Origin: Microgenomates group bacterium
GTDB taxonomy: Bacteria; Patescibacteriota; Microgenomatia; PFEM01; JBNASD01
DNA length: 64,000 bases
NCBI GenBank assembly: GCA_049720225.1
Contig: JBNASD010000001.1
Coordinates: 164,733-228,732, forward strand
Direction of reading: 5' to 3'
Shown here: positions 1 through 40,011 of the stretch, piece after piece
Position numbering within the stretch: position 1 is the stretch's first letter
How the letters are laid out: each line of letters begins with the position of its first letter
Notes under the pieces: generated by a model
The model's input: the letters and a program-made list of their open reading frames with translations, nothing else
Told to the model about the DNA's origin: nothing
The model's database searches: none
Program-made: the position numbers and the translations under genes

Positions 1-477
1 TTCTGATACTGCAATTATTTTGGTTGCAAAATTGCTTGCTAGCCTATATAAAAATTTAACTTCATTTGCAGGTTTAAACATAAAAAATGGACCATGTTCA
101 ATCCAAATTATTTTAAACCCAAGTATTTTTAAAATAGGAGTAAGAATTATTTTTTCTGTAGCAGACTGCAAACAAATAATTCTAATTTTTTTCTTTTTAT
201 AAAAAATTAAAATAGTTTTAATATATAAAAAAAGATATTTTGGTAAACCAAAAAATAATTTTATTAAATCTCTTCTTGTTCCTATTTCTTTTGAAAATAA
301 TGATAATACTTTTACCTCTACCTTTAAGTTTTTTATTCTTCCAGAAAATTTAGGAAGCGTAGTAATAAAAAATAATTTATATCTTTTAAAATATTTTTTA
401 AACGCTTGAATTAAATTCAAATTGTAAATTTCAGCTCCACCAATATTTTTAGCAGGTCGAATTAACAAAATCTTCAT
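1..477 (-). CDS. Glycosyltransferase family 4 (GT4), N-terminal part; partial gene running off the window start
   Basis: Manual minus-strand translation from ATG at 475-477: MKILLIRPAKNIGGAEIYNLNLIQAFKKYF...GFKIIWIEHGPFF, no stop before position 1. GGxE N-terminal GT4 signature. Absent from the ORF track because it has no in-window stop. 4-nt start/stop overlap with the upstream flippase gene. Confidence 0.55.
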   Translation of the reverse strand, partial: MKILLIRPAKNIGGAEIYNLNLIQAFKKYFKRYKLFFITTLPKFSGRIKNLKVEVKVLSLFSKEIGTRRDLIKLFFGLPKYLFLYIKTILIFYKKKKIRIICLQSATEKIILTPILKILGFKIIWIEHGPFFMFKPANEVKFLYRLASNFATKIIAVSE

Positions 478-1685
478 TTTTTTACTACAAGATAAAAAGT
501 TAAAAGATATAATTCTGAAATTAAAACATTAATACTAGCAGCAAAATAACCATAATAACGGATAAAAATTATATTTAGAATTACATTTATTAACAAAGTA
601 ATACTCATTCCTAATATAGGTATCGTTGTGTTTTCTTTAGCTAAAAATAAATAAGAAAAAAGATTATTTAAATAGAATAACGGAATACTAAGAAGTAGAA
701 TCCTTAATATTAAAATGCTTTCGTAAAACTTTTCTCCTCCTAATATTTTAATTACAAGAGAGGAAAAAATAAAACCAAAAAAAATAATTATCAAAGAAAA
801 ACCTAAAGCAATATAAATTGAATTTCGAAAAAGATTTTGAAGTTTTTTCTTGTTTCCAACGAAGTTAGTCAAAAGTGGATAAATTGTGGCCATATAAAAC
901 CCCCATAAAACTAAAATATTTTCCAAAATTTTATATGCAAGACTATAAATTCCTACCTCACTTGGACCTCGATAAATAGAAAGAATTATTGTATCTACCT
1001 TAAAATATAAAAGAGAAAGAATACTTAAAAAACCAACAGGAAAAGCTTTAATAAGTAATTTTTTTCCTAAATTAAAATCAAAAATTAATTTTTCTTTTAT
1101 AAATTTTTTAAGAAAAAAAATTATTAAAATACTGCCTGCTAAATTACCAATTAAAACTGTATTAACAATGCTGTAAAAACCAAACTTTAAAAATACAAAG
1201 ATTACAATAAAAATTGTGGTTACTACTTTTGTAATTACATCTACTAAAGCAACTAAATCTAACCTCAAATTAGCTTGAAAAATCACGGTTCCATAAGTAT
1301 TTAAAACTCCAATTGCCGAACCTATACAGGCCAGAATTATTCCGATTTTTAAAAATTTAGAATAAGGAAAAAATAAAAGACAAAAAATCGCTAATAAAGT
1401 AGAAAATAAAACCAAAAATAACTTAATCCAAAAATAAGTACCATAAATCTCTTTGGGAAATTTTTTAGAGGCTATCTCTCTTACCATCGTTAATTGTAAT
1501 CCCCAATCAGCAATAATTCCGAAAATAGAAAAATATGCAAAAGCCAAACTAAAATTTCCAAACCCTTCTTGACCAAGATAACGAGTTAAAATACTAACAG
1601 AAAGAAAACTTAAAAAAGTAGTAATTATCTTCCCCAAAATTTGAACTGCGGAATTATAGCCAATTTTATAAAAAATATTTTTCAT
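474..1685 (-). CDS. Polysaccharide biosynthesis protein / oligosaccharide flippase (Wzx-like, MOP superfamily), ~12 TM
   Basis: 403 aa, highly hydrophobic with a multi-TM profile; length and N-terminal pattern typical of PST-family flippases; adjacent to a GT4 gene. Confidence 0.55.
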   Translation of the reverse strand: MKNIFYKIGYNSAVQILGKIITTFLSFLSVSILTRYLGQEGFGNFSLAFAYFSIFGIIADWGLQLTMVREIASKKFPKEIYGTYFWIKLFLVLFSTLLAIFCLLFFPYSKFLKIGIILACIGSAIGVLNTYGTVIFQANLRLDLVALVDVITKVVTTIFIVIFVFLKFGFYSIVNTVLIGNLAGSILIIFFLKKFIKEKLIFDFNLGKKLLIKAFPVGFLSILSLLYFKVDTIILSIYRGPSEVGIYSLAYKILENILVLWGFYMATIYPLLTNFVGNKKKLQNLFRNSIYIALGFSLIIIFFGFIFSSLVIKILGGEKFYESILILRILLLSIPLFYLNNLFSYLFLAKENTTIPILGMSITLLINVILNIIFIRYYGYFAASINVLISELYLLTFYLVVKK

Positions 1686-1722
1686 TTAGCTAATTTTATC
1701 ATTTTAAATCTTTTTTCCTATT

Positions 1723-1752
1723 GACAAAAATAAAAAAAATAAAATAAATTAA
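1723..1752 (+). promoter_or_regulatory. Candidate sigma70-like promoter (TTGACA-N17-ATAAAT) for the 958-aa secreted protein gene
   Basis: TTGACA at ~1723-1728 followed 17 nt later by an A/T-rich -10-like hexamer, in the divergent intergenic region 1686-1763. Confidence 0.25.
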
Positions 1753-1763
1753 AAATAAAGAAA

Positions 1764-4640
1764 ATGAAAAAGTCTATCCTAAATAATGTAGGAAGATTTT
1801 TTCTTTTATTATTTACTTTTTTTCTTTTCTTAATTTCCTCAAAATCTGTTTCTGCTCTTTGGAATAAATATCCAAGCAATCCAATTTTTTCGGGAACGCC
1901 AGGAGGATGGGATAGCAGAGATACATCTTGCCCATATATAATTTTTAATGGAAATACCTACAAAATGTGGTATTCGGGAAATAATGGCAGTGGTTGGAGA
2001 ATAGGATATGCTACTTCATTAAATGGATTAATGTGGTATAAAGTAAATTATCCTGTAATAGATATATTTTCCCCTAATAATTGGGAAAAAGATACGGGAC
2101 ATTCTTTTGTTTTATACGAAGAAAATTTATATAAAATGTGGTACTCTTCAATTAGTTATTCATGGATTAGCGGCGAAGATCGGTATCGCCTTCGATATGC
2201 TACTTCTTTTGACGGAATAAATTGGGATGAAAAAGATTGGGTTTTAACTGGAAGTAAAGATAAATGGGATGCTGGCGGAATAAATAGAGGGCATTCTATT
2301 TTAAAAATAAACGGAATTTATCATCTATGGTATACAGGGACTGATGCCGGAACTAATTGGAGAATAGGATACGCAACATCTTTAGATGGAATCAGTTGGA
2401 CTAAGCAAAATAATTGTAATCCTGTGATTACTAAAACAGAAACGTGGGAATATAATAATGTAAGTTATCCTCACGTAATTTATAATAATGGGGTTTATGA
2501 AATGTGGTATGCTACTGGGGCAGGTGATTTACCAACAAGAATTGTTTATGCCTACTCTCTTGATGGAATACATTGGATTAAACCTGCAGATAAAAATCCG
2601 GTTTTAGAGGTAGGTCCATACGGATCTTGGGATAGTGTTAATATTAGTTCCCCTTTTGTCTTAAAAGAAGGTAATAAATATAAAATGTGGTATGATGGTT
2701 ATGATGGTAAACAGTGGCGAATTGGATATGCAGAAAGTATTGATGAAATAAATCCCACTCCTACTTTAAAACCTACACCTACTCCCACTTTTACTCCAAC
2801 TCCAACCCCCACCCCCACCCCTCTCCCCCCTCTTATTTTTCTTCCCGGATTAGGAGGGTCGTGGAATTTTGAAAGCTTAGTTTTGGGGATTGAAAAACCA
2901 TATAAAGAATGGGTAATTACACCTGGCCCAGGAGAAAAAGTCTATTATGGCTTTTTAAAAACCCTTAAAAATGCTGGTTATAATGATAACGGTCCTCAAA
3001 AAAACCTTTTTATCTTTACCTACAATTGGACCAAAAAGGTTTCTCAGATTGCCGAAGATCTTAAAGAGTTTATTCAAAATACCGTTAAACCTAAACCTGG
3101 GCAAAAAATTATTCTTGTCGGTCATAGTTTAGGGGGTTTAACCGCCAGAACTTATGTCCAAAACAATCCCCAAAATCAAGTTACCACCCTCCTTACTTTA
3201 GGTTCTCCCCACAAAGGAGCTGTTCAAGTATATTATGCCTGGGCAGGTGGTGATCTTCGCTTTATGAATATTTTAGAAAGAATTGCCGTTGGTTTACTTC
3301 TTCAAATTCGTCGTTCTGGTTTTAATACCGATAAAGAAACGGTTCAAAATATCGCTCCTGTTTTAAAAGATTTACTTCCAACTTTTAATTATTTAAAACA
3401 AAACAACCAAGAAATTCCATATCTTCAAATGATTGAAAAAAACGATTGGCTTGATAACCTTAATAACAATCCTCCCTCCAATCTTTTTTCTGGTTTTACT
3501 ACTCTTTTATCAAATATAGAAAATAGCACTCCCCGTTGGTTATTAGTAGAACCACGAAATTGGTTAGATAAAATTTTAAATCTTTGGTCCGATGGTAAAC
3601 CAGTAGGTGATCCAATTTTAGATACCGGCGATAGAACTGTTCTTTCTTTAAGCGCTCAACTTTCTGGTGCTCAACTAGTTGAACTTCAGGGTTTAGGTCA
3701 TCGAGAAATTGTCCAAACTCAAACTGGCCAAGAAAAAATTATGGAAATTTTAAACCTTAAACCCACTCCTTATTCTGTTTCTGAAGACATTTCTGAGCCA
3801 ATTTTAGTTTTTCTTATTGCTTCTCCGGCTACTTTAGAAATTTTTGACACTAAGGGAAACTCTGTTGGAGAAGGCGATGGAAAATTAATGTTTGTTTTTA
3901 ATCCCCAAGAAGGAAATTATCAGATTAAAATTACCGGTACCGGTAATGGACCTTATCAGCTCTATGTAGGCCAACTAACTAAAAACGGTGACATTTGGAG
4001 CGAAATTTCTGGCAAAATTAATCAGGGAGAAATCCAAATTAGAGAAGTTAATTTTCAACCCAATTCTCCCTTACCTTATCCTTTTGTTGATAATACTGGT
4101 GAAATTTCTTTACAATCTACAATCCAAAAAATTTTAGAAACAAAAGAATTTATTAACAATAATCTTCTCTCTCCTAAAATAAAGAAAAAATTAATTAGTT
4201 CTTTAAACGAAATTCTGGAATTAATCTCTCAAAAAAATTATCACCAAGCAATTACTACTTCTTATGAACTTCATCTTTATCTTGGCCGACTTTCTAAACA
4301 AAAAATTGTTCCTTCCTCAATCGTTATCTTTCTTAAAAATAAAATCATAGAAATTATTAACGATTTAGAAAAAGTTTATATTAAAAATCAGTCTTCCCCT
4401 TATTCCGATAAAAAATTAAAAACAGAAATTAAAATTGCCGAAAATCTCTCCCTTCAAATGGAGAAAAAACTTAAAAAATTTTCCCAAGCTACTTCTGAAG
4501 ATGGAGCTTTATATCTTTTAGCCAAAGAAAAACTTAATATTGCTAAAAATTCTTCTTCCCATCAAGCACATATTAATGCTTTAGGGGTAAAATATTTATC
4601 TTTAGAGGGAATTATTCTTTTTAACTCAGGAAATAATTAA
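1764..4640 (+). CDS. Secreted multidomain protein: signal peptide; 5-bladed beta-propeller glycoside-hydrolase-like domain (GH130/GH43/GH32-like repeats); Pro/Thr linker; alpha/beta-hydrolase lipase domain (GHSLGG); C-terminal helical domain
   Basis: N-terminal signal peptide (…SKSVSA|LWNK). Five repeats of W(D/E)..x..P.VI..G..YxMWYxG…RIGYAxSxDGIxW. PTPTLKPTPTPTFTPTPTPTPTP linker. IILVGHSLGGLTARTYV and TLGSPHKGA, a class-2 lipase/PGAP1-like nucleophile elbow. Confidence 0.6.
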   Translation: MKKSILNNVGRFFLLLFTFFLFLISSKSVSALWNKYPSNPIFSGTPGGWDSRDTSCPYIIFNGNTYKMWYSGNNGSGWRIGYATSLNGLMWYKVNYPVIDIFSPNNWEKDTGHSFVLYEENLYKMWYSSISYSWISGEDRYRLRYATSFDGINWDEKDWVLTGSKDKWDAGGINRGHSILKINGIYHLWYTGTDAGTNWRIGYATSLDGISWTKQNNCNPVITKTETWEYNNVSYPHVIYNNGVYEMWYATGAGDLPTRIVYAYSLDGIHWIKPADKNPVLEVGPYGSWDSVNISSPFVLKEGNKYKMWYDGYDGKQWRIGYAESIDEINPTPTLKPTPTPTFTPTPTPTPTPLPPLIFLPGLGGSWNFESLVLGIEKPYKEWVITPGPGEKVYYGFLKTLKNAGYNDNGPQKNLFIFTYNWTKKVSQIAEDLKEFIQNTVKPKPGQKIILVGHSLGGLTARTYVQNNPQNQVTTLLTLGSPHKGAVQVYYAWAGGDLRFMNILERIAVGLLLQIRRSGFNTDKETVQNIAPVLKDLLPTFNYLKQNNQEIPYLQMIEKNDWLDNLNNNPPSNLFSGFTTLLSNIENSTPRWLLVEPRNWLDKILNLWSDGKPVGDPILDTGDRTVLSLSAQLSGAQLVELQGLGHREIVQTQTGQEKIMEILNLKPTPYSVSEDISEPILVFLIASPATLEIFDTKGNSVGEGDGKLMFVFNPQEGNYQIKITGTGNGPYQLYVGQLTKNGDIWSEISGKINQGEIQIREVNFQPNSPLPYPFVDNTGEISLQSTIQKILETKEFINNNLLSPKIKKKLISSLNEILELISQKNYHQAITTSYELHLYLGRLSKQKIVPSSIVIFLKNKIIEIINDLEKVYIKNQSSPYSDKKLKTEIKIAENLSLQMEKKLKKFSQATSEDGALYLLAKEKLNIAKNSSSHQAHINALGVKYLSLEGIILFNSGNN
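2761..2835 (+). repeat. Pro/Thr-codon (ACY-CCN) simple repeat encoding the PTPTPT linker of the 958-aa protein
   Basis: cccactcctactttaaaacctacacctactcccacttttactccaactccaacccccacccccacccctctcccccctc. Confidence 0.7.
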
Positions 4641-5590
4641 TGAAAATTCTTAAAATTCGTGAACTTTTTATTGACGCTATCCGAAGTTTTTTTAAATCTC
4701 AAGGTTTTACCGAGGTAGATACTCCTTTATTGGTAACCGCCCCCGACCCTTCTCCTTTTAATGAAGTTTTTGAGGTTCATTCAATTACCGGCCAAAAATT
4801 TTATCTTACTCCTTCTCCCGAATTTTTTATGAAAAAACTTTTAGCTAATAATTCAGGTAATATTTTTCAAATTTGTAAAGCTTTTCGTGACGGCCAAATC
4901 GGTCCTCTTCACAACCCTGAATTTACCATTCTTGAGTGGTACCGTATAAATGCCAATTATTACGATATTATGGTTGATTGCGAAAATTTAATTGATTATT
5001 TAATAAAAAAACTCTCTCCATTTAAAATCTTAAATTTAAAATTTAAAATTATTCATCCTTGGCCAAGAATTTCTATTAAAGAAGCCTTTCAAAAATATGC
5101 CAAGATTGATTTAGATGAATTTCTTGATTTAAATTATGCTCGCCAAATTTGCCAGCAACACGGCTATCAAGTAAATAAAACCGATACGTGGGAACAACTT
5201 TATCACCAAATTTTTTTAAACGAAATTGAACCAAAACTTCCTTCTGGTACCCCATTAATTTTATATGACTATCCTGCACCATTAGCGGCCTTGGCTCGCC
5301 TTAAAAAAGACAACCCTAATTATGCGGAAAGGTTTGAATTCTATTTAAATGGGATTGAAATAGGTAACGGTTATAGCGAACTTAATGATTCTTCCGAACA
5401 ACGAAAAAGATTAATCAATGACCTTAAAATAAGAAAAAAATTGGGGATGCGTCTTTTTCCTCTTGACGAAGAGTTTGTTAAAGCAGTAGGTAAAATGCCA
5501 CCAACCGGAGGAATTGCGGTGGGAGTTGATCGATTAATGATGACTCTTATTGGGAAGAAAAAAATTGATCCCACCTTCCCTTTTAATTAA
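4640..5590 (+). CDS. epmA: Elongation factor P--(R)-beta-lysine ligase (EpmA/PoxA/GenX; class II LysRS paralog lacking the anticodon-binding domain)
   Basis: 316 aa; starts directly in the class II catalytic core (…FRDGQIGPLHNPEFTILEWYR, motif 2; GIAVGVDRL, motif 3); no N-terminal OB domain; immediately upstream of efp. Confidence 0.7.
   Translation: MKILKIRELFIDAIRSFFKSQGFTEVDTPLLVTAPDPSPFNEVFEVHSITGQKFYLTPSPEFFMKKLLANNSGNIFQICKAFRDGQIGPLHNPEFTILEWYRINANYYDIMVDCENLIDYLIKKLSPFKILNLKFKIIHPWPRISIKEAFQKYAKIDLDEFLDLNYARQICQQHGYQVNKTDTWEQLYHQIFLNEIEPKLPSGTPLILYDYPAPLAALARLKKDNPNYAERFEFYLNGIEIGNGYSELNDSSEQRKRLINDLKIRKKLGMRLFPLDEEFVKAVGKMPPTGGIAVGVDRLMMTLIGKKKIDPTFPFN
5025..5052. repeat. Heptanucleotide tandem repeat (AAATTTA-like x4) inside epmA
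   Basis: aaatctt aaattta aaattta aaattat; encodes KILNLKFKII. Confidence 0.6.
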
Positions 5591-5648
5591 AATCAAAAAT
5601 TGACATTTTTTGCCAGGTGTCCAAAATTGTCAATTAATTAATTTTTTA

Positions 5649-5677
5649 TTGTCTATTTTTATTTTTTATGATAGAAT
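5649..5677 (+). promoter_or_regulatory. Candidate promoter TTGTCT-N17-TAGAAT; the -10 ends 7 nt before the efp ATG, so a possible leaderless mRNA
   Basis: Hexamers read directly; no Shine-Dalgarno between the -10 and ATG 5685. Confidence 0.3.
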
Positions 5678-5684
5678 TTCTCCT

Positions 5685-6242
5685 ATGATCGAAAGTGGAC
5701 AACTCAAAAAAGGAATGTGTATTCTTTTTCGAGGAGAACCTCATTTGGTAATTGATAAAACCTTTGTTTCCCCCGGAAAAGGCTCGGCCTTTACTCGGGC
5801 TAAATTAAGAAATATCAAAACCGGCGCGGTTTTAGAATTTACCTTTAAATCAGGAGAAAAAATTGAAGAAGCAGAAGTTAATACCTTAGAATTTCAATAT
5901 CTTTACCAGCAAGGAGAGGAGTATTTTTTTATGAATCCGCGAAATTTTGAGCAAATTTCTCTCTCTCAAGATCTTATTGGCAATTTTTACCATTTTTTAA
6001 AAGAAGGAGAAACTTATAAAATTATGCTTTTTGAAAATCAGCCAATTACTCTTATTCCCCCTTTAAAAGTAAAGCTTAAAGTAATCGAAACCGAAGCAGG
6101 AGCAAAAGGCAATACCGTTACCGGTGCTACCAAACCAGCAAAAACGGAAACTGGTTATATCGTTCAAGTTCCTTTATTTATTAAAGAAGGAGATACAATT
6201 ATTGTTAATACCGAAACTGGAGAATATGTAAGTAGAATATAA
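5685..6242 (+). CDS. efp: Translation elongation factor P
   Basis: MIESGQLKKGMCILFRGEPHLVIDKTFVSPGKGSAFTRAKLRN aligns with the EF-P N-terminus, including the conserved PGKG loop lysine. 185 aa from ATG 5685; the ORF-track start at 5610 is an upstream extension. Confidence 0.85.
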   Translation: MIESGQLKKGMCILFRGEPHLVIDKTFVSPGKGSAFTRAKLRNIKTGAVLEFTFKSGEKIEEAEVNTLEFQYLYQQGEEYFFMNPRNFEQISLSQDLIGNFYHFLKEGETYKIMLFENQPITLIPPLKVKLKVIETEAGAKGNTVTGATKPAKTETGYIVQVPLFIKEGDTIIVNTETGEYVSRI

Positions 6243-7256: not shown

Positions 7257-7373
7257 TTACTTCTTCTCGCCCGTGCCCTTACAGGCGGGGCACACTTTCC
7301 CGTTTCGGGTTACGCCACCACTGCAGTGTGGACACTGAGTAGGAAGCTTCTGGTCATCGCCGTTTCTTCCCAT
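7257..7373 (-). CDS. Small zinc-ribbon protein (38 aa, two CxxC pairs; second pair CPACKGTG matches a DnaJ-like CxxCxGxG); GC-rich, strong SD
   Basis: Minus-strand RNA reads AAGGAGG-CAGACAT-ATG GGA AGA …: MGRNGDDQKLPTQCPHCSGGVTRNGKVCPACKGTGEKK*. GC3-rich codons (GGC, GCC, CCC, GAC) unlike every flanking gene. The ORF-track 62-aa version starts inside the tRNA gene (GGSNPS TΨC-arm artefact) and is over-extended. Confidence 0.4.
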   Translation of the reverse strand: MGRNGDDQKLPTQCPHCSGGVTRNGKVCPACKGTGEKK

Positions 7374-7408
7374 ATGTCTGCCTCCTTGGTTGGCGGGCCG
7401 GCGGCTAG

Positions 7409-7482
7409 TGGCCGATGAGGGATTCGAACCCCCGACCTCTCGCATGTGAAGCGAGCGCTCTAACCAACTGAGCCAATCGGCC
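7409..7482 (-). tRNA. tRNA-Val (anticodon CAC), 74 nt, CCA not encoded
   Basis: Manual cloverleaf: acceptor GGCCGAT/ATCGGCC, D-arm GCTC-AGTTGGTT-AGAGC, anticodon arm CTCGC-TTCACAT-GCGAG (C34 A35 C36), T-arm GGTCGGGGGTTCGAATCCCTC (stem GGGGG/CCCTC), discriminator A73. Confidence 0.85.
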
Positions 7483-7551: not shown

Positions 7552-8109
7552 ATGAGCTTCTTTAAAAAAATCGGTAAATTCTTTCTTGATCTTACAGAAA
7601 CAATTGTTATGGCTCTTTCTGTCTTTGTGGTTATTTATCTTTTTCTATTTCAACCCCATCAGGTACGAGGAAATTCAATGTATCCCAATTTCCACGATGG
7701 CGAATATATTCTTACTGATAAAATTACTTATCGCATGCGAGAACCTCGTCAGGGAGATGTAATTGTTTTTCGGGCTCCAAAAAACGAAGAGTATGATTAT
7801 ATAAAAAGAATTATTGCTGTTCCTGGAGACTGCTTAACTATTTCTAATGGAAAAGTGTATATTAATAATCAACTTTTTCCTGAACCTTATCTTCCCTCTG
7901 ATTATGTTACCAACCCTGGTTCCTTTATCCGCGCCAATACTCCTGTTTGCGTTCCTCCGGCTAATTATTTAGTAATGGGAGATAATCGTTCTCACAGTTC
8001 TGATTCTCGAGAGTGGGGATTTGTGCCGCGACAAAATATTATTGGTCGAGCGTGGTTTCGCTACTGGCCCCCTTCTCGGTGGGGACCGGTGGATAAGATT
8101 GACCGGTAA
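7552..8109 (+). CDS. lepB: Signal peptidase I (S26 family)
   Basis: N-terminal TM segment; catalytic Ser box GNSMYPNF; Lys box YIKRIIAVPGD; GDNRSHSSDSREWGFV; C-terminal …FRYWPP. Confidence 0.85.
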   Translation: MSFFKKIGKFFLDLTETIVMALSVFVVIYLFLFQPHQVRGNSMYPNFHDGEYILTDKITYRMREPRQGDVIVFRAPKNEEYDYIKRIIAVPGDCLTISNGKVYINNQLFPEPYLPSDYVTNPGSFIRANTPVCVPPANYLVMGDNRSHSSDSREWGFVPRQNIIGRAWFRYWPPSRWGPVDKIDR

Positions 8110-10583: not shown

Positions 10584-13400
10584 TTAAAGAGGAATAATTT
10601 TTAATTCTTTTCCTTTCTTCAAGCTTTTAGCGATTACTTTTTCTTTAAGATAATCTCTCAATTTGGGTTGTTGAGGAAGCCAAGGAAGCACTACCTCAAT
10701 TTTTTGGTCTAAACGACATTTTGCTTTTTTTCTTAGTTCCTGAATTTGTCTTATTAACTCTCTCACCTCTCCCTCTTCTTTTAGTTGAGGGGTAATTTCG
10801 GTATCAAATTTTACTTCTCCCTTACCTGACTTTAATTCAATCTCTTTGACATTAAGTTCTTCTTTTAATAATTCCAAAAGAGCCTTTCCCCATTTTACTT
10901 CCGAAATTAGTTTATAAAAATCAGAATCTTTAATTATTAATTTTTTTAATGGCTGACGAACTTTTATTCCTAATTTTTTTCTCTCTCCATGAGCCACTTC
11001 GCAAATTTTTCTTACTGATTCCATTTCCTTCAAAAGTTTCTCATTGACTCTTTCTCCTTTCGGCCATTTTTCTAAATGAACACTTTTATTACTCGTATAC
11101 TTTTTTTCTCCAAAAAGAATATTTTGGTAAAATTCTTCTGATAAAAATGGAATAAAGGGTGCAAGAATTTTACTCAAAGTTAACAAAACATACCCTAATG
11201 TTTCATAACATTCTTTTTTATCTTTTTCATTTTTAGCAACCGGACCTACTCTTTCTCGCGAACGCCTTACATACCATAATGACAAATCATCAACAAATTT
11301 TTCAATCTTTTTTACCGCTTGATATGAATGAAATTTATCTAAATTATTAGTTACTTCCTTAATTAATTTATTTAAATTAGCAATTATCCATTGATCTAAA
11401 ATGTTTTCTTTTTTTAAGGAAACATTTTCTTTAAATTTAAATCCATCTACCTGAGAATAAACTTTATAAAAATTAAAAACATTCCATAAAGGTAAAATAA
11501 AGCGCTTAACTGAATCCTCTACTAAACGGATAGAAAAGCGATAATTATTACCTACTTGAGTGGAAGAATAAAAATACCACCGAATGGCATCAACTCCTGT
11601 TTTTCTAATCGCTTCCCACGGATCAACCACGTTTCCAATATGTTTACTCATTTTTCTTCCTTGATCATCCAAAACTAAACCGGTACAAACAACATTTTTA
11701 TAAGAGTTTTGATCGAAAACAAGAGTACTCACCGCCAAGAGAGTAAAAAACCAACCGCGCGTTTGGTCCATTGCCTCAGCAATAAAATCAGCTGGAAATT
11801 GATCTTTAAAAATTTCTTTATTTTCAAAAGGATAATGCCACTGAGCCACCGGCATTGCTCCTGAATCAAACCAACAATCAATTACCTCATTTACTCTTTT
11901 CATTTTTTCTTTACATTTGGGACAAAGAAAGGTCACTTCATCTATAAAAGGCCGATGAGGATCTTCGGGTACTTTTCCTCCTAGCTTTTTGATCTCTTGA
12001 AAGCTACCAATACAAATTTGATAACCACAATTTTGACATTCCCAAATTGGTAAAGGAGTTCCCCAGTACCGTTTTCTTGATAAAGACCAATCAATAAGGG
12101 TTGCCAACCAATTACCCATTCTTCCTCTTTTGATATAGGCAGGCACCCAATTAGTTTTATTATTTTCTCTAATCAAAGCCTCTTTAACTGCCGTTGTTTT
12201 GATATACCATGAATCAATTGCGTAATAAAGTAAGGGAGAATGACAACGCCAGCAGAAAGGATAAGCATGAGTTACCGGTTCTACTTTTAAAAGCAAATTT
12301 CTTTTTTCTAAATCTTCGATTATTTCTTTATCCGCTTCTTTCACTTTTTTACCGGCAAATTTTCCACATTCTGGAGTAAAAACTCCCTCGGGAGTAACAA
12401 CATGATGTTTTGGTAATCCTATTTTTACCCCTAAATCAAAATCTTCCTCTCCGTACATAACCGCGGTGTGAACGATACCTGTTCCTTCTTCCAAAGAAAC
12501 AAAATCAGCCGCGGTAACAAAATGAACTTTTTCTTGATACTTAACAAAATCAAAAACTGGCAAATACTCCCAACCCAAAATATCTTTCCCTAAAAATTTT
12601 TCCTTTACCTGATAATTACTTTTTGACCCTAAAACTTTCAATCTTTCTTCCGCTAAAATTAAATCTTCGTTTTGATAAGTTACTCTAACATAAACCGCTT
12701 GGGGGTTTACCGCCAAAGCCACATTTCCCAAAAGCGTCCACGGAGTGGTTGTCCAGGCTAAGAAATAAAGATTATTTTTTCCTTTTACGGGAAATTTTAC
12801 ATATAAAGAATTTTCGGTAACATCTTTATAACCTTGGGCTACCTCATGAGAAGATAAAGGAGTTTCACAGCGATAACAATAAGGAACCACTTTGTAATCT
12901 TTATAAAGCCATCCTTTTTTCCAAATCTCTTTTAATAACCACCAACAACTTTCAATATAATCCCGATCGCACGTCACATAAGGATGCTCCATATCAATCC
13001 AAAACCCAATTCTTTTAGTTAATTTCTCCCATTCCTCTACATAGCGAAAAACCGACTCTCTACATTTTTGGTTAAATTTAGCAATTCCATATTCTTCAAT
13101 TTGTTTTTTACCAGAAATCCCTAATTCTTTTTCGATTTCCAATTCTACCGGTAAACCATGAGTGTCCCATCCCCCTTTTCTTAAACAATAATATCCCTGC
13201 ATTGTTTTATAGCGAGGAAAAAGATCTTTAATTATTCGCGCCAACACATGATGAATACCTGGTTTACCATTAGCGGTGGGGGGGCCTTCATAAAATACAA
13301 AACTTTTTTGTCCCTTTTTTCTTTTTAAGGTTTTTTCAAAAATCTTTTTTTGTTCCCAAAAATTTAAAATTTTCTCTTCAAGTTGGTTAAAATTTATCAT
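10584..13400 (-). CDS. ileS: Isoleucyl-tRNA synthetase
   Basis: HIGH-type motif PGIHHV; KMSKH motif; editing domain; C-terminal Zn-binding CPKCKEK…CW. Start more likely at MINFNQLEE (ATG 13398-13400) than at the track start 13448, which runs through two terminator-like hairpins. Confidence 0.85.
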   Translation of the reverse strand: MINFNQLEEKILNFWEQKKIFEKTLKRKKGQKSFVFYEGPPTANGKPGIHHVLARIIKDLFPRYKTMQGYYCLRKGGWDTHGLPVELEIEKELGISGKKQIEEYGIAKFNQKCRESVFRYVEEWEKLTKRIGFWIDMEHPYVTCDRDYIESCWWLLKEIWKKGWLYKDYKVVPYCYRCETPLSSHEVAQGYKDVTENSLYVKFPVKGKNNLYFLAWTTTPWTLLGNVALAVNPQAVYVRVTYQNEDLILAEERLKVLGSKSNYQVKEKFLGKDILGWEYLPVFDFVKYQEKVHFVTAADFVSLEEGTGIVHTAVMYGEEDFDLGVKIGLPKHHVVTPEGVFTPECGKFAGKKVKEADKEIIEDLEKRNLLLKVEPVTHAYPFCWRCHSPLLYYAIDSWYIKTTAVKEALIRENNKTNWVPAYIKRGRMGNWLATLIDWSLSRKRYWGTPLPIWECQNCGYQICIGSFQEIKKLGGKVPEDPHRPFIDEVTFLCPKCKEKMKRVNEVIDCWFDSGAMPVAQWHYPFENKEIFKDQFPADFIAEAMDQTRGWFFTLLAVSTLVFDQNSYKNVVCTGLVLDDQGRKMSKHIGNVVDPWEAIRKTGVDAIRWYFYSSTQVGNNYRFSIRLVEDSVKRFILPLWNVFNFYKVYSQVDGFKFKENVSLKKENILDQWIIANLNKLIKEVTNNLDKFHSYQAVKKIEKFVDDLSLWYVRRSRERVGPVAKNEKDKKECYETLGYVLLTLSKILAPFIPFLSEEFYQNILFGEKKYTSNKSVHLEKWPKGERVNEKLLKEMESVRKICEVAHGERKKLGIKVRQPLKKLIIKDSDFYKLISEVKWGKALLELLKEELNVKEIELKSGKGEVKFDTEITPQLKEEGEVRELIRQIQELRKKAKCRLDQKIEVVLPWLPQQPKLRDYLKEKVIAKSLKKGKELKIIPL

Positions 13401-33530: not shown

Positions 33531-34064
33531 TTAAGAAAAAGTACGAAAAGTATTTATTTTTCTTTCTATAATTTTTTCAATATAAGAAATTAAATTTCCT
33601 TTATCCTTTAATTGCGGAGGGATTCCAAAACCAGAAAAAAGCAAAATTTTTTCCTCAAATTCTTTTTTTAATTTTTCTTCTTCGTTTTTTTCCAGTAACT
33701 TTAATGAGTTTTTTAAAAGATTAAAAATTTTTTCGTTTTTTTCTCCTTCAGGAGTAAATTTATCCACTAATTCACAAAAATAATAGGCTAATTTTACTTT
33801 ATTTATATTTTTTCTCCAGGAAGAAAAATTATCTAAAACCTCTACCTCCGATAAAATGTCAAAAGTTTTTCCTTTTCTAATTAAAAACCGACAAAAATTA
33901 AATGTCTCTAAATTTCCTGCTCGCTTACTGGTAATTTTTCTTACTCCTTTGGCCAAAACTTTTATTTTTCCATAATTTAAAGTAAAAATAGTCAAAATCC
34001 TATCAATTTCTCCATAATTTTTTCTTTTAAGAATTATTCCCTGGGTTTTATAGAGGTAATTCAT
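33531..34064 (-). CDS. recO: DNA repair protein RecO (short form)
   Basis: N-terminal OB-fold signature TQGIILKRKNYGEIDRILTIFT…GKIKVLAKGVRK; conserved glyS-recO neighbourhood; only 177 aa. Confidence 0.6.
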   Translation of the reverse strand: MNYLYKTQGIILKRKNYGEIDRILTIFTLNYGKIKVLAKGVRKITSKRAGNLETFNFCRFLIRKGKTFDILSEVEVLDNFSSWRKNINKVKLAYYFCELVDKFTPEGEKNEKIFNLLKNSLKLLEKNEEEKLKKEFEEKILLFSGFGIPPQLKDKGNLISYIEKIIERKINTFRTFS

Positions 34065-36022
34065 TAAAGAGATAAAATTAATTCTTTATCTTTATCAAGA
34101 TCAAATTCTTCTATATTTTTATTGGTTTTTATTTCATACCGAAAGGCTTTAGTTCCTGGCTGTTTCTGAATTAGAAGGCGATAATCTCCATTTCCTTTAA
34201 ACGGCAACTTATATTTAAAAATTACCTGAGCTTTTCCTAATGGTCTTAGAGGAGCTTTATCCCCATAAAAAGCCTCAAAAACTGTTTTTCCTAATTCTTC
34301 ATAGGTACGAACTTCTACTTCTGAACCTGAAGCTTCAATTAACTCGCTTCCTTTAGGCACATAAATTCTTAACCAATTCCGATAAAGACCATTTAAACAA
34401 AGATCTCCCGCCTCTAAATTACAATTTGAAGGAGGAGCGGGATTAACATAATCAATAGTGACTTTCTTGATTATTTCTTGATTTTCGTTTATCTCAATTT
34501 CCTGGGTGACTGTTTGGTAAATGAAAATATTTGATTTCGCGCCGGCAAAATTACAATCATTAAGATGAAAATAATCGCCCTGATAATCTTTAATCCTTCC
34601 TCCTGCATTTAAAGTTTCAATTGCTTTTTGAATATCCTCATTGAAAAAGTAAAAAAGAATATGTTTTTCCTGAATATTTTTAAATCCTACATCAAAAAAT
34701 TCTGGCCATTTTTTGGCTGGTGACTGCATTACATGAAGTAAAATTGCGTGCATTAATGGTCCTAACATTGCCTTTCTTTCTGTTCTTAAGGTTCCTACTG
34801 GTTTATCAGCTAACTTTTCCAGTTCATAAAAAACTTGCGGACAATTGCATCGTGGATCGTTTTCTGCCGAAAAAGTCCCCCATTCCGCTACTCCCACCGG
34901 CCCTAAAACTTTTAAAATATCAACCAAAACTTGAGTATCCACCGCAATTACTCCATCGACATCAGGACCACCGGCGGTTTTATAATGAGGCCAAAAAGTT
35001 TCTATAAACACTTTAAAATCAGGAGAAAGATTCATATCTCTTAAATGCCAATAATAAACATTTTTATGATATTTTTTAATTGGCTCAGGTGCCGGCAAGC
35101 GATTCCCAAATTTACTATCTAAAGTATAAATATCCCACGAACCTAACGGTTTAAAATTTCCTTTATGAACTTCTAAAATTGCGTAAGCGGTTAAAAACCC
35201 TCCGGTGGGTCTTAATTCGGCATCATTTTGAAAAAGTAAAAGATATCTTTTTGCATCAGGAAAACCCAATAAAGGTTTTAAATAAGAAATTAAAGGTTTA
35301 ATCTCCTCCATCATTAATCTGGTTTCTTTTAAAAGTGTTTGTCCTTTTACAATTTTTTCTCTTATTTGATAACCAAAAAGCTTTTGGGGATATTTTTGAG
35401 GATTAATTTTGTTAATCTCTTCCTCTGCTAATTTTAATTTCTCATCAATTTTATCAATATTTGGTTGAAGCTTATCTAAAGTATCTAAAGCCAACATTAA
35501 CCTTTCTTCGGTGGTCAGTGCTTTTTCTTCCTTTTTTTCTTTTAAACCCAAAATATCGGCATAAGGTTCAATTCCCTCAATTGTAAGTTCCCCCGCTTCG
35601 ATTAAGTATTTACCACCCTGAAATAAACTTTCTCCATCCTTATAATAGGGAAAAAATTTAAAAACAATCAGTTTTTGATAACTTTTTTCTAAACTTAAAA
35701 ATTTCTCCTTAAATTCACCTAATTTTTCTTTAGTTTCCTCTAAATTTTGACTTTTAATTGCCTCCGATAATTGTTTTCCATCCTGAAGTAAAGCTAAGGC
35801 TTCATTTTTAAAATTTAAAAGAGGAAAAATAGTTAATCCTCCCACTAAAATTATTAAAAAAAGAAATCCTCCCAACACCCATAAAAATTTTTTGGAAAAG
35901 CGAGGAAATTTTAATCTTAATTTTTTTTCTGGTTGATTTAAATCTTCAAAAAGAGTAATTCTTTTTGTTTCTAAATCTTGATTCATTTTTATAAGGCTCC
36001 TTTCCCAGAAATCATTGCCCAA
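34064..36022 (-). CDS. DUF4012-like membrane-anchored extracytoplasmic protein (652 aa) at the head of the glycan locus
   Basis: N-terminal TM (FLWVLGGFLFLIILVGGLTIF); large ectodomain with a GVIAVDTQVLVDILKVLGPV block, recalled as typical of the DUF4012 family. Confidence 0.45.
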   Translation of the reverse strand: MGNDFWERSLIKMNQDLETKRITLFEDLNQPEKKLRLKFPRFSKKFLWVLGGFLFLIILVGGLTIFPLLNFKNEALALLQDGKQLSEAIKSQNLEETKEKLGEFKEKFLSLEKSYQKLIVFKFFPYYKDGESLFQGGKYLIEAGELTIEGIEPYADILGLKEKKEEKALTTEERLMLALDTLDKLQPNIDKIDEKLKLAEEEINKINPQKYPQKLFGYQIREKIVKGQTLLKETRLMMEEIKPLISYLKPLLGFPDAKRYLLLFQNDAELRPTGGFLTAYAILEVHKGNFKPLGSWDIYTLDSKFGNRLPAPEPIKKYHKNVYYWHLRDMNLSPDFKVFIETFWPHYKTAGGPDVDGVIAVDTQVLVDILKVLGPVGVAEWGTFSAENDPRCNCPQVFYELEKLADKPVGTLRTERKAMLGPLMHAILLHVMQSPAKKWPEFFDVGFKNIQEKHILFYFFNEDIQKAIETLNAGGRIKDYQGDYFHLNDCNFAGAKSNIFIYQTVTQEIEINENQEIIKKVTIDYVNPAPPSNCNLEAGDLCLNGLYRNWLRIYVPKGSELIEASGSEVEVRTYEELGKTVFEAFYGDKAPLRPLGKAQVIFKYKLPFKGNGDYRLLIQKQPGTKAFRYEIKTNKNIEEFDLDKDKELILSL

Positions 36023-36629: not shown

Positions 36630-37748
36630 TTAAAGATATTCTTTTTTATTTTTTTCTTTAAGAAGATTAACTATCTGCTTTACTTCTTGGGCTTTATCTT
36701 TTCGACAAATTAAAACCGCATCAGAACTATCAACTACGATTAAATCCTCAACTCCAATTAAAGCAATCAATTGATCATCAAATTGAATTAAATTATTTTT
36801 TGCCTCCAAAGCGATTACTTCTCCTTTTTTTCCAAATTTAATAATCACGTTTCCCTGGTCATCTTTGGGAGAGATTTCATAAATTACACTCCAATCTCCT
36901 ACATCGTTCCAACCAATATCCGCCGGAATCACCAACCCATTTCTAATTTTTTCCGAAACTGCCACATCTACCGGCATTTCGGGGGCTTCTTCATAAACTT
37001 CTTTTAATAAAGAAAAAAACCTCTTTTTGCCAATAACTGGCCGAATTTTTTCTACCGCCTGATAAATTGCCGGGGTGTATTTTTTAAGAGTTTCTAAGAA
37101 AAAACCCGATGGCCAAATATACATTCCCGAATTCCAATAGTAATTTCCTTCTTTAATAAATCTTTGAGCGGTTTCAAAATCTGGTTTTTCAACAAATTTT
37201 TCTAAATGATAAACAGCAAACCCATCGATTTTTCCTTTTTGCTTTCCGGCTTTAATATAACCAAAACCTGTATGGGGATAAGTAGGTTTAATTCCAATAG
37301 TGACTAACGTATTTTCCTTAAAAGCAGCTTTTGCTCCCGCTAATTCTACCTTTTTAAATATTTCTTCTTTTCTTACTAAGTGATCTGCCCAAAAGTTCAT
37401 TATTACTGCCTGAGGATCCTTTTGATGAATTATTAACGTTCCTAAACTACAAGCCATGGCGGTATTTTTCCTTGCCGGTTCCCAAAAAATATTTTCTTGA
37501 GGAATTTGGGGAGTTTCTCTTTTAATTTCTTTAGCATACTCTTTAGAAGTAGTAACGATAAAAATTTTTTCCGGTTTAACTAATCCTTTTAATCTTCTAA
37601 TTGTTTTTTGATATAAAGTTTCCTTTCCAAAAAGACGGGAAAATTGTTTTGGTGTTTTCTCCCGAGAACGTGGCCATAATCGCGTTCCTCCCCCTCCACA
37701 AATTACTAAAGCATATAAATGTTGATTTAAATCATTTTTTCCTGCCAT
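36630..37748 (-). CDS. manC: Mannose-1-phosphate guanylyltransferase (GDP-mannose pyrophosphorylase)
   Basis: LYALVICGGGGTRLWPRSREKTPKQF NTP-transferase signature; 372 aa. Confidence 0.75.
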   Translation of the reverse strand: MAGKNDLNQHLYALVICGGGGTRLWPRSREKTPKQFSRLFGKETLYQKTIRRLKGLVKPEKIFIVTTSKEYAKEIKRETPQIPQENIFWEPARKNTAMACSLGTLIIHQKDPQAVIMNFWADHLVRKEEIFKKVELAGAKAAFKENTLVTIGIKPTYPHTGFGYIKAGKQKGKIDGFAVYHLEKFVEKPDFETAQRFIKEGNYYWNSGMYIWPSGFFLETLKKYTPAIYQAVEKIRPVIGKKRFFSLLKEVYEEAPEMPVDVAVSEKIRNGLVIPADIGWNDVGDWSVIYEISPKDDQGNVIIKFGKKGEVIALEAKNNLIQFDDQLIALIGVEDLIVVDSSDAVLICRKDKAQEVKQIVNLLKEKNKKEYL

Positions 37749-38836
37749 TTTCTTATTACTAAATCCTTAAATTCTTTTTTAAATCTTTCTTTACTAAATC
37801 TTAACGCATTTTGTTGACAATCTTCAACTTTAAATTTCATTTTTTTAAATTTTTTAATCGCCGTAATTAAAGATTCTGGTGTTTGGTGATCGAAAAAAAT
37901 TCCTGTTTTATTTTCAATAATTGTTTCTTTTGCTCCTCCCCCTCGAAAAGCAATTACTGGTTTTCCACACGCCTGGGCCTCTAAAGGTACTAATCCAAAA
38001 TCTTCTTCTTGAGGAAAAATTACCGCCAAACAATTTTGATAATAACTTAACAACTTCTCATCTGTCAACTGACCCAAAAATTCAATGTTTTTATTAGCCA
38101 TTCTTTTAAGTTTCCCCATTTGTTTACCTATCCCGATAATTTTTAATGGCAATCCCAAATCATTAAAAGCTTTTACTGCAATATCAATTTTTTTATAAGG
38201 AACCAGTCGGGAGACAATTAAGAAATATTTTGTATTTTTCTTTTCCGTTTTTCGCTTTGAGCTTTTCGCTTTGAGCTTAAAAAATTCGGTATCTATTGGT
38301 GGATAAATCAATTCAGAATCTTGACAATAGTATTTTTTAATCCTTTGTTGGATATTTTGAGAAATCGCTACATAGCAATCTGGTCGCCAAGAAGCAATTT
38401 TGTCCCATTTTCTTAAATAATTAACTATCGGTTTAGTAATCAATCTCAACATTTTATTTTTAAAGTAATCATCATAACCGCTCCACAAATACCGCGTTGG
38501 AGTTAAACAATAACAAATATGTAAAGTTGATGGTTTCGTAATAATTCCCTTAGCCGCTTCACTGGTAACCGAAATAACCACCTCAAAATTATCAAAATTA
38601 AAACTTTCAAAAGCTAAAGGCATTAACCAAGGATAAAGTTCATGATAAGTTTTTCCTAAAGGAAATTTATTCAAAAATGAAGGAAAAACTTGAAAAACTT
38701 TCGCCCATTGAGCTTTTTTGGGATTATAAACGGCAGTAAACAATGGTGCTTCTGGCCAAATTTCATGCAAAGCCAAAAGTACTCTCTCTGCTCCTCCCCA
38801 TTTGTTAACTCTATCGTAAACTAAGGCTACCCTCAT
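37727..38836 (-). CDS. Glycosyltransferase family 4
   Basis: GGAERVLLAL N-terminal motif; EX7E EDFGLVPLEAQACGKPVIAFRGGGAKETI. Carries heptamer repeat tract 38240-38275. Confidence 0.8.
   Translation of the reverse strand: MRVALVYDRVNKWGGAERVLLALHEIWPEAPLFTAVYNPKKAQWAKVFQVFPSFLNKFPLGKTYHELYPWLMPLAFESFNFDNFEVVISVTSEAAKGIITKPSTLHICYCLTPTRYLWSGYDDYFKNKMLRLITKPIVNYLRKWDKIASWRPDCYVAISQNIQQRIKKYYCQDSELIYPPIDTEFFKLKAKSSKRKTEKKNTKYFLIVSRLVPYKKIDIAVKAFNDLGLPLKIIGIGKQMGKLKRMANKNIEFLGQLTDEKLLSYYQNCLAVIFPQEEDFGLVPLEAQACGKPVIAFRGGGAKETIIENKTGIFFDHQTPESLITAIKKFKKMKFKVEDCQQNALRFSKERFKKEFKDLVIRKWQEKMI
38240..38275. repeat. Heptamer/14-mer tandem repeat (TTTTCGC TTTGAGC)x2 plus two degenerate leading heptads, inside a GT4 gene
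   Basis: ttttccg tttttcg ctttgag cttttcg ctttgag. Confidence 0.6.
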
Positions 38837-38841
38837 AAATT

Positions 38842-39978
38842 TTAAATTTTAAATTTTAAATTTTTATAAATTTCTATTGTTTGGCTGGCCATTTTTTTCC
38901 AAGAATAATTTTTTACTAATTGCTTTCCCTTCTTAATCAAAAATGCTTTTTTTTCTTTATTTTCTATCAATTGTCCTAACTTTTTAATTAAATCTTTTTC
39001 CGAATGTGGATCAAAGTATAATACTGCTTCTTTATATACTTCTCGAAAAACAGGAATATCCGAAGCAATTACCGGTAATCCCACTGCCATTGCTTCTAAT
39101 GCCGGTAAACCAAAACCCTCCATTAAGGAGGGAAAGATAAAAGCTTCTCCCGCTTTGTAAATTTGCGATAATTCTTTATCAGAAACAAAACCAATAAATT
39201 TTACATATTCTTCCGCCTCTAATTTTTTAACCTTTTCCGCTAATCTTTTTTGAAAAATATTTCTTGCACAGACAATTACTAAATAAAGTTTTCTTATCTG
39301 ATTAAATTCCTTTATTGCTTTAATTAAAGTCTCTATATTTTTATGAGGATAAAGGCTACCGGTATAAACCACGAAAGGTCTTTTAATTTTATACTTAGTT
39401 AAAAACCTATCAATTTTAAATTTAAAATTTAAAATTTTAAATTTATTTTCTACTCCTTCATATGTCACTTCAATTTTTTTTGGAGATAAACGATATTTTT
39501 TAATTAATTCTTTTTTCCAAAAATTGGAGGGAGTAATAATTTTTTTTGCTCTTTTTATTGCCCACCAAACTATTAATCGATAATTTAAATATTTAAACCA
39601 ATAAAAAAGCGATCCTCTAGTAGTTGTCTCTTTCCCTTTAAAATAATGTTTAATTAAATCATGAATTGTCACCACGTAATCTCCAAACCAAAAAATCGGC
39701 ACATTAAAGTGAGGAAAATGAACCAAATCAGGTTTTAATTTAAAAAGCAAAATTGGTAAAAAAAATTGTTCTTTGAAAGAATAATGGGGATAATCAGCTA
39801 AAACTTTTTTAAAATTTTTATTTTTAAATTTCAATTTTTTAAAGTACTTTTTCTTTAATAAAATAAAATATTGATTTTCTTTATCTAAACCTTCAATTTC
39901 TTTAATTAAATTCATTACATACCGACCAATTCCTGCGTTTTCCAAACCATATAAACGAGCATCGATGCAAATTTTCAT
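38842..39978 (-). CDS. Glycosyltransferase family 4
   Basis: EGFGLPALEAMAVGLPVIASDIPVFREV. Carries AATTTTA-type heptamer tracts at 39412-39446 and at its 3' end 38847-38874. Confidence 0.8.
   Translation of the reverse strand: MKICIDARLYGLENAGIGRYVMNLIKEIEGLDKENQYFILLKKKYFKKLKFKNKNFKKVLADYPHYSFKEQFFLPILLFKLKPDLVHFPHFNVPIFWFGDYVVTIHDLIKHYFKGKETTTRGSLFYWFKYLNYRLIVWWAIKRAKKIITPSNFWKKELIKKYRLSPKKIEVTYEGVENKFKILNFKFKIDRFLTKYKIKRPFVVYTGSLYPHKNIETLIKAIKEFNQIRKLYLVIVCARNIFQKRLAEKVKKLEAEEYVKFIGFVSDKELSQIYKAGEAFIFPSLMEGFGLPALEAMAVGLPVIASDIPVFREVYKEAVLYFDPHSEKDLIKKLGQLIENKEKKAFLIKKGKQLVKNYSWKKMASQTIEIYKNLKFKI
38847..38874. repeat. Heptamer tandem repeat AATTTTA x4 at the 3' end of GT4 gene 38842..39978
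   Basis: aatttta aatttta aatttta aattttt; encodes C-terminal …KNLKFKI*. Confidence 0.6.
39412..39446. repeat. Heptamer tandem repeat AATTT(T/A)A x5 inside GT4 gene
   Basis: aatttta aatttaa aatttaa aatttta aatttat; encodes KFKILNFKFKI. Confidence 0.6.
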
Positions 39979-40011
39979 AGTTTAATTAATTAAAGAAAAT
40001 AATTTAATCAA

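Follow-up and report, generated by a model that had tools for sequence, protein, structure and literature searches.

The 64,000-nucleotide stretch of contig JBNASD010000001.1 from a Microgenomates group bacterium analyzed here (the window, numbered from its first nucleotide) encodes, close to its start, a 958-residue protein in which a five-bladed β-propeller precedes an α/β hydrolase and a folded C-terminal region. The open reading frame given in the original prediction is real, its product being identical in sequence to the NCBI entry 'MAG: alpha/beta fold hydrolase [Microgenomates group bacterium]' (MAG, metagenome-assembled genome), encoded on a 466-kb contig. The protein is of a known kind, the modular secreted lipase- or LCAT-like hydrolases, represented here by a large uncharacterized family. 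The gene has the following features.

1721..1750, + strand: sigma-70-like promoter match in the 78 bp between the divergent genes, TTGACA and TAAATT spaced by 18 nt (consensus match only)
1764..4640, + strand: whole open reading frame, 958 residues plus stop, ATG start (open reading frame call; NCBI identity)
1764..1856, + strand: signal-peptide-like N terminus, residues 1–31, with predicted cleavage between VSA and LW (hydropathy; A-x-W junction conserved in the alignment)
1857..2741, + strand: five-bladed GH130-like β-propeller, residues 32–326, catalytically degenerate, proposed glycan-recognition module (Pfam, AlphaFold2, Foldseek, profile alignment)
2100..2102, + strand: His113, which takes the place of the catalytic Asp found invariantly in the [EY]DPR motif of GH130 (aligned by profile with 9fj8 and 7fip at high posterior probability)
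2742..2831, + strand: Pro/Thr-rich linker, residues 327–356 (sequence composition and entropy)
2832..3743, + strand: LCAT-family α/β hydrolase with helical cap, residues 357–660 (Pfam, AlphaFold2, Foldseek)
3126..3128, + strand: predicted catalytic Ser455 in GHSLGG (invariant in 36 and 48 sequences; at least 90% in 150 representatives)
3630..3632, + strand: predicted catalytic Asp623 in GDRTV (invariant; after a core strand in the AlphaFold2 model)
3699..3701, + strand: predicted catalytic His646 in GLGHREIV (invariant in 36 and 48 sequences; at least 90% in 150 representatives)
3744..4088, + strand: β-sandwich domain, residues 661–775, strands at about 680–764 (AlphaFold2; detected in 148 of 150 representatives)
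4089..4637, + strand: seven-helix bundle, residues 776–958, basic, isoelectric point 9.45 (AlphaFold2; computed isoelectric point)

The IILVGHSLGG and LGSPHKG motifs on which the hydrolase was originally recognized lie at residues 449–458 and 479–485. AlphaFold2 folds residues 352–958 into one rigid, three-part unit (predicted local distance difference test score, pLDDT, 96.3; predicted template-modeling score, pTM, 0.93), in which Ser455, Asp623 and His646 each follow a core strand in the canonical order. Together with the oxyanion-strand motif PG..GSWN, these three residues do not vary in sets of 36 and 48 sequences and hardly vary in 150 representatives of the wider family; the Ser-Asp-His triad that the original prediction had marked for checking is therefore complete.

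The domain had been described as class-2 lipase/PGAP1-like, of which the second half stands and the first does not. The Pfam PGAP1 profile (PF07819) scores 38.6 bits against a cut-off of 24.3 and is matched by 46 of the 48 relatives, albeit over profile positions 6–133 of 233 only, and Palm_thioest also passes its cut-off. Lipase class 2 (PF01674) reaches 13.7 bits against a cut-off of 20.3 (E 0.045) and matches 8 of the 48. LCAT (PF02450) scores 43.4 bits against a cut-off of 21 and has matches in all 48 relatives (best E 6e-18). Foldseek places BlEst2 (propeptide form), LPLA2 and LCAT first, followed by true lipases and the type VI secretion system effector Tle4. The family profile aligns with LCAT residues 103–218, and BLASTP against an approximate human LCAT sequence gives a match collinear over the whole domain (query 28–303 with LCAT 98–390, E 1e-8). 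Motif pairs against the same approximate sequence are YNWT/YDWR, GHSLGG/GHSLGC, PTFNY/PSFNY, GDRTV/GDDTV and GHREIV/QHLNMV.

In LCAT and LPLA2, which act extracellularly on lipid acyl esters, the hydrolase core is accompanied by a cap and a membrane-binding domain (PMC6277198). The present domain shares with them the α/β core, the Ser-Asp-His triad, the helical cap and the collinear motifs PG..G, Y[DN]W[RT], GHSLG, G[SA]P.G, P[ST]FNY and GD.TV. It differs in that about 25 residues, rather than about 70 as in LCAT, separate PGLGGSWN from the next helix, the membrane-binding domain being absent, and in that the bacterial protein, from the candidate phyla radiation (CPR), adds a β-sandwich, a seven-helix bundle and an N-terminal lectin-like module. 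Locally, family I.1/I.2 lipases of Pseudomonas and Burkholderia give the strongest sequence matches, at the nucleophile elbow and G(S/T)PH(K/R)G. These span only about 110 residues; beyond them, cap and Asp/His region included, the domain aligns with LCAT and not with the lipases. Matches of a short profile of the hydrolase N terminus to designed pentatricopeptide repeat (PPR) proteins in the PDB were spurious summed hits and were discarded.

PGAP1/Bst1, a glycosylphosphatidylinositol (GPI) inositol deacylase, and palmitoyl-protein thioesterase act on glycolipids or lipidated proteins, from which they remove fatty acyl groups, and PGAP1 is a multi-pass membrane protein of the endoplasmic reticulum (ER). 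Both resemble the present protein in that their Pfam scores exceed the cut-offs. In contrast, only the N-terminal half of the fold is matched, and the protein described here has no membrane segment besides its signal peptide.

The remainder of the protein, described in the original prediction as roughly 450 residues of low-complexity helical tail, turned out to be something else. Residues 486–660 are the rest of the hydrolase, comprising the helical cap, Asp623 and His646; they are followed in the AlphaFold2 model by the β-sandwich (about 680–765) and the seven-helix bundle (about 780–957), at pLDDT above 95. Outside the linker, only residues ~789–826 have low sequence entropy. The C-terminal 297 residues have no significant relative in the PDB or Pfam, the best matches being SRP72 (E 0.016) and the gingipain C-terminal domain (E 0.06). 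FIMAH has no match in the window protein and is matched weakly by 5 of 16 relatives (best E 0.00082). The nearest precedent for this region would be, by analogy, the β-sandwich of Bacillus licheniformis BlEst2 (PDB 6wpx), which is the best Foldseek match (E 7.5e-10), and of Thermoanaerobacter EstA3. In both, the lipase core is followed by a C-terminal β-sandwich packed on the catalytic domain. According to the title of its PDB deposition, the sandwich of BlEst2 inhibits the enzyme; that of EstA3 is required for long-chain substrates (PMC10816834). BlEst2 differs in its poor global superposition (template-modeling (TM) score 0.24–0.31) and in having neither propeller nor helical bundle.

The N terminus has the n-, h- and c-regions of a signal peptide, with a basic MKK...R start, a hydrophobic core at residues 12–24 and VSA–LW near residue 31, as judged from hydropathy and inspection. 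A like N terminus occurs in 31 of 36 close and 116 of 148 distant homologues, in agreement with the signal peptide originally proposed. With its AXA-type site, the 958-residue protein looks like a substrate for Sec export. The hydropathy profile of the whole protein contains no second hydrophobic or membrane-like segment. The Pro/Thr linker, expected to span 25 residues, comprises 26 (residues 331–356, PTPTLKPTPTPTFTPTPTPTPTPLPP); in homologues it ranges from about 7 to about 50 residues. A scan of the 64-kb window found no paralogue of any of the protein's domains. Sigma-70-like matches such as the one upstream of the gene number 27 across the region versus 20.7 expected, i.e., they are not enriched.

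The propeller was likewise correctly recognized from its five blade repeats. YxMWY occurs five times (at 66/123/186/245/306), as do (I/R)(G/V)YAxS (80/143/201/260/320) and W[DE] (49/107/168/228/289). Pairwise comparison of the blades, which are 27–46% identical to each other, shows them to be unusually regular, and AlphaFold2 gives a five-bladed propeller with a pLDDT of 95.9 and a pTM of 0.93. Of the three related folds originally suggested (GH130, GH43 and GH32), GH130 is the closest. Pfam GH130 (PF04041) scores 48.3 bits against a gathering cut-off of 26, in three partial stretches, and matches 33 of 48 relatives. The best structures found by Foldseek are 9gph and 9fj8 (E 7e-15, TM score 0.78), with Teth514_1788 as the best superposition, followed by other GH130 enzymes, GH137, GH32/43/117 enzymes and a GalNAc deacetylase. 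A profile built from 36 homologues matches the GH130 structures 7fip (E 2e-23) and 9fj8 (E 2e-22), and also propellers of GH117, GH137, GH43 and GH32.

Tandem copies of the same blade motif, 15–25 per protein, also occur in 900–1700-residue proteins (P0027, P0028, P0077, P0079, P0081 and P0108) from Nitrospinae, Deltaproteobacteria and other sources, some of which carry Ig-like repeats and C-terminal membrane anchors. Judging by these architectures, with several propellers in succession, they would form a multi-propeller surface-protein family without prior characterization, in a setting that appears adhesin-like rather than enzyme-like.

The original prediction also took the propeller to be the glycan-acting enzyme half of the protein, and recommended looking for catalytic acids in it. 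In GH130 the catalytic Asp is invariant within [EY]DPR (Asp142 in BT3780, Asp104 in UhgbMP and Asp131 in BF0772; PMC4599007), and the D142N variant of BT3780 is inactive (Cuskin et al., PMC4599007). Asn74, Arg89 and Asp363 of BT3780 also contact the substrate (PMC4599007). In the window protein the position of the invariant Asp is occupied by His113, and among the 36 relatives this column holds Asp in 13, His in 6, Glu in 5 and other residues in 12; the Arg of [EY]DPR is present in none of them. In blade 1, the equivalent of Asn74 is Cys56 (Asn in 10 of the 36) and that of Arg89 is Ser71 (Arg in none). For blades 3–5, which would hold the phosphate or Glu-pair and Asp363 sites, the repetitive sequence lets local GH130 alignments slip out of register by one blade. 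Residue mapping relied on the profile alignment; a single-sequence alignment to 9fj8, far weaker and offset from it by one blade, was set aside.

An active glycoside hydrolase or phosphorylase joined to a C-terminal lipase, as first envisaged, is thus improbable. The Pfam GH130 score does exceed its cut-off, the closest structures are all enzymes (GH130, GH137, GH32, GH43 and GH117), in half of the relatives the catalytic position still holds an Asp or Glu with Pro after it, and the propeller has conserved charged residues. Against these stand His113 in place of a residue whose substitution inactivates BT3780, the loss of the Asn, Arg and [EY]DPR positions noted above, and the fact that lectin-type folds stand in for the propeller in relatives. 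Because the GH130 Asp, Asn and Arg positions are not conserved, we propose that the propeller is non-catalytic, i.e., a GH130-derived fold that has lost its catalytic residues and probably acts as a lectin. It retains the five-bladed architecture of Teth514_1788 (9fj8), Teth514_1789 (7fip) and BT3780 (5a7v), at TM scores of 0.73–0.78 and a best profile E of 2e-23, but not the catalytic Asp or the Asn and Arg of the −1/+1 subsites, and its blades are far more regular. Such regularity recalls multivalent β-propeller lectins such as tachylectin-2, which have very regular blades with one conserved motif each; the likeness is by analogy, and the binding sites of the propeller described here are, unlike those of tachylectin-2, hypothetical. 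The setting differs as well: the characterized GH130 phosphorylases are described as intracellular (PMC7660257), whereas this propeller lies on a putatively exported protein, fused to a lipase-type domain.

How widely the architecture occurs was assessed with the hydrolase plus C terminus (the core) as query and clusters at 50% identity. At least 652 clusters were found at E ≤ 1e-30 and 1515 at E ≤ 1e-10, with named members from Microgenomates, Shapiro-, Gottesman- and Beckwithbacteria and 'Patescibacteria group'. Among the best 150 cluster representatives of this search, the core is preceded by a GH130-like propeller in 47, a ConA/DUF1080-type jelly roll in 57, a BNR propeller in 4 and other modules (Kelch propellers, β-helix-like, unidentified) in 27; 15 have no module or a fragment. 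The combination had been thought unusual, yet more than 100 close homologues and these 47 representatives share it. These comparisons indicate that the GH130-like propeller with hydrolase is one common variant of a modular family and not a one-off chimera, and that the interchangeable N-terminal partners are, by their predicted folds, glycan-recognition modules.

A separate scan of genome contigs used a generic nucleophile-elbow pattern, and of its 80 loci only L007–L019 belong to the family; most of the 80 (from Streptomyces, Psychrobacter and others) are unrelated α/β hydrolases. Five of the loci (L008, L009, L014, L018 and L019), from metagenome-assembled genomes labeled 'uncultured Gammaproteobacteria bacterium', carry the hydrolase family and the Microgenomates-type hydrolase/lepB/parB/rpmA synteny, and by this content their labels are probably wrong.

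The modular layout bears on two further explanations. In the first, the hydrolase would remove acetyl or acyl groups from a polysaccharide and the propeller would serve as its carbohydrate-binding module, as in modular plant-cell-wall esterases. A module, a Pro/Thr linker and a catalytic domain are indeed typical of secreted carbohydrate-active enzymes, and the alternative N-terminal modules are all glycan-related folds; however, the best sequence and structure matches are to lipid-acting, helical-capped proteins (LCAT, LPLA2, palmitoyl-protein thioesterase, PGAP1 and true lipases) and include no known carbohydrate-esterase family, and we regard this function as quite unlikely. In the second, the propeller would sit over the hydrolase active site and gate access to it, as in prolyl oligopeptidase. 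The pairing of a propeller with an α/β hydrolase does recall S9 peptidases, and the linker of some homologues has just ~7–10 residues. This arrangement nevertheless seems very improbable, given the 26-residue Pro/Thr linker in the window protein, the replacement of the propeller by jelly-roll and β-helix modules in relatives and the absence of S9 peptidase similarity from all Pfam, PDB profile and Foldseek searches.

Two neighboring genes are conserved with the family.

474..1685, − strand: Wzx-type polysaccharide flippase, divergent neighbor and last gene of a glycan cluster that runs past the window edge (Pfam Polysacc_synt 1e-29)
7552..8109, + strand: signal peptidase I (LepB), conserved downstream neighbor of the family (Pfam Peptidase_S26 1e-50; synteny)

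In the window the hydrolase gene is followed by epmA-like, efp, lepB, parB, rpmA, rplU, ftsW/rodA and ileS genes and then a division and cell-wall cluster; the rest of the region is devoted to cell division and envelope synthesis, which we count in favor of a role at the cell's own envelope. Five homologous loci, at 38–54% identity and including one whose hydrolase has a BNR module, likewise place the gene divergent to a cluster of Wzx, Wzy, methyltransferase, GT2, GT4 and PMT_2 genes and upstream of lepB-parB-rpmA, with differing immediate downstream genes. A divergent glycan cluster lies beside the gene in every locus with enough flank, down to ~30% identity, with lepB-parB on the other side, and in L013 the hydrolase gene alone is inverted between both flanks.

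A neighbor-joining tree of the hydrolase cores unites the window protein with those of L001, L006 and L007 in a clade with a bootstrap of 100/100. Within it, the GH130-like module goes with a Wzx–methyltransferase–GT4 cluster in the window and L001, and a BNR module goes with a GT2–GT2–GT2–Wzy cluster in L006 and L007. This split pairing inside one clade suggests that the N-terminal module and the adjacent glycan cluster have been replaced jointly at least once. The one-to-one pairing of module type with cluster type is only partial, the GT2/Wzy-type cluster being found with BNR, DUF1080 and Kelch modules. The BNR-type locus L006 also has a PlsC-type acyltransferase gene (PF01553) at 11726..12430, two genes downstream of the hydrolase gene; none was seen in the other loci.

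The stop codon of the hydrolase gene overlaps the ATG (TAATG, 4638–4642) of the epmA-like gene at 4640..5590, whose product is a 316-residue, class-II aminoacyl-tRNA synthetase-like, EpmA/PoxA-like protein with tRNA-synt_2 only; the EF-P gene (5610..6242) comes next. L001 has the same hydrolase/epmA-like/EF-P trio with a 4-nt overlap. This arrangement suggests, for the closest relatives only, that the hydrolase gene is co-transcribed with the EF-P modification pair.

The window has a second glycan cluster at 36630..42109 (−), in which a GDP-mannose pyrophosphorylase-type gene (NTP_transferase plus ManC β-helix) is followed by GT4, GT4, GT2 and GT4 genes. With these genes the organism probably produces surface glycans that contain mannose, a point of interest because the GH130-like propeller derives from a mannoside-acting type of family. 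A gene for a 652-residue DUF4012 protein (34064..36022, −) adjoins this cluster.

Several other features of the window were recorded. Between 8 and 31 kb lies a complete division and cell-wall order of ileS, ftsZ, ftsA, murG, ftsW, murD, mraY, further mur genes, a penicillin-binding protein (PBP) gene and mraW. From 8000 to 64000, nearly all open reading frames of at least 250 residues are on the minus strand, with a GC skew of −0.1 to −0.37 throughout. The listed TTG start of the EF-P gene is probably too far upstream, EFP_N beginning at residue 30 and the L001 homologue aligning from residue 26 (MIESGQLKKG...). A tRNA-Val gene (anticodon CAC; 7408..7482, −) overlaps the 5′ end of a 62-residue open reading frame (7257..7445, −), whose N-terminal ..GGSNPSS.. 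is translated tRNA T-arm and which has a later CxxC...CxxC and no Pfam match.

The original prediction named the protein a candidate host-surface or envelope-remodeling factor. That was a reasonable inference, and the conserved gene context lends the envelope side some support. Somewhat short of an even chance, our preferred interpretation is that the protein is exported, probably surface-associated, and works as a serine acyl-esterase or acyltransferase of the LCAT family, directed by a sugar-recognition module that is itself non-catalytic, with a glycoconjugate of the cell's own envelope as its target. The sequence of events that we infer from the computed folds, intact triad, loss of GH130 residues, module swapping and locus would be as follows. 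The Sec system would export the protein and signal peptidase would cleave it after Ala31. The five-bladed propeller, on its flexible Pro/Thr linker, would dock to a glycan, and Ser455, with Asp623 and His646, would attack an ester-linked fatty acyl group of a lipid or glycolipid in the glycan-bearing surface. The acyl-enzyme would be resolved either by water, as in lipases and phospholipases A, or by a hydroxyl acceptor, as in acyl transfer of the LCAT type. The β-sandwich and basic helical bundle, rigid with the hydrolase, would probably aid substrate or surface binding in place of the LCAT membrane-binding domain. As the target we favor a surface glycoconjugate of the cell itself, which the neighboring, co-varying glycan cluster would produce, because of the gene context, namely the adjacency of that cluster and the joint replacement.

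Several points weigh against this interpretation: (i) Similarity to LCAT and LPLA2 is remote, at about 16–21% identity, and the membrane-binding domain of LCAT is missing. (ii) Family I.1/I.2 lipases score as well as LCAT around the nucleophile. (iii) The propeller keeps polar residues, namely an acidic residue after W/F in each blade, a DRFR loop in blade 2 and Arg175; from the strand topology these should face the GH130 active-site side, where another catalysis would be possible. (iv) No anchoring motif was found in the protein, and retention at the surface is a guess. (v) Synteny is kept on both sides of the gene, including lepB-parB-rpmA, and adjacency to the glycan cluster may reflect inheritance and not function. 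(vi) The joint replacement is a single event, for which linkage of the module-encoding 5′ end to the cluster could suffice.

A host-directed function is rather unlikely but is the main competitor to an own-envelope target. The propeller would bind a glycan of the host or a neighboring cell, and the LCAT/LPLA2-like domain would free fatty acids and lysolipids for a lipid-auxotrophic bacterium. Patescibacteria do not synthesize lipids, CPR cells are enriched in lysolipids, and how they take up or break down lipids has not been identified (PMC11665869; PMC7242380). This lifestyle is the reason to favor host membranes as the target, with which the LCAT/LPLA2-like hydrolase and the extreme diversity of recognition modules on a conserved core, as for changing external targets, are consistent. 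However, the family is centered on Microgenomates, and not all CPR, as far as the searches reach, and its fixed site beside the cell's own glycan cluster, together with the joint replacement, points inward. A bolder and still less probable form of this idea is that these proteins are the lipid-acquisition enzyme still missing for Microgenomates, a phospholipase A or acyltransferase whose swappable lectin module picks the glycan-coated membrane to strip. If true, it would feed lysolipids and fatty acids to cells that do not make lipids and would help set host range. In a variant, by analogy with mycolyltransferases, scavenged acyl chains may be moved onto the cell's own surface glycan as a lipid anchor.

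Should the protein prove to be an ordinary secreted esterase, these results would serve only to annotate a widespread 'alpha/beta fold hydrolase' more precisely. The routes by which CPR/Patescibacteria acquire or remodel membrane lipids are an acknowledged gap, for which the family offers a concrete, clonable candidate, with at least 652 clusters, predicted export, an intact predicted triad, a likeness to LCAT and phospholipase A2, swappable glycan-recognition modules and a fixed locus beside surface-glycan genes. Its propeller illustrates the reuse of a glycosidase fold as a probable lectin.

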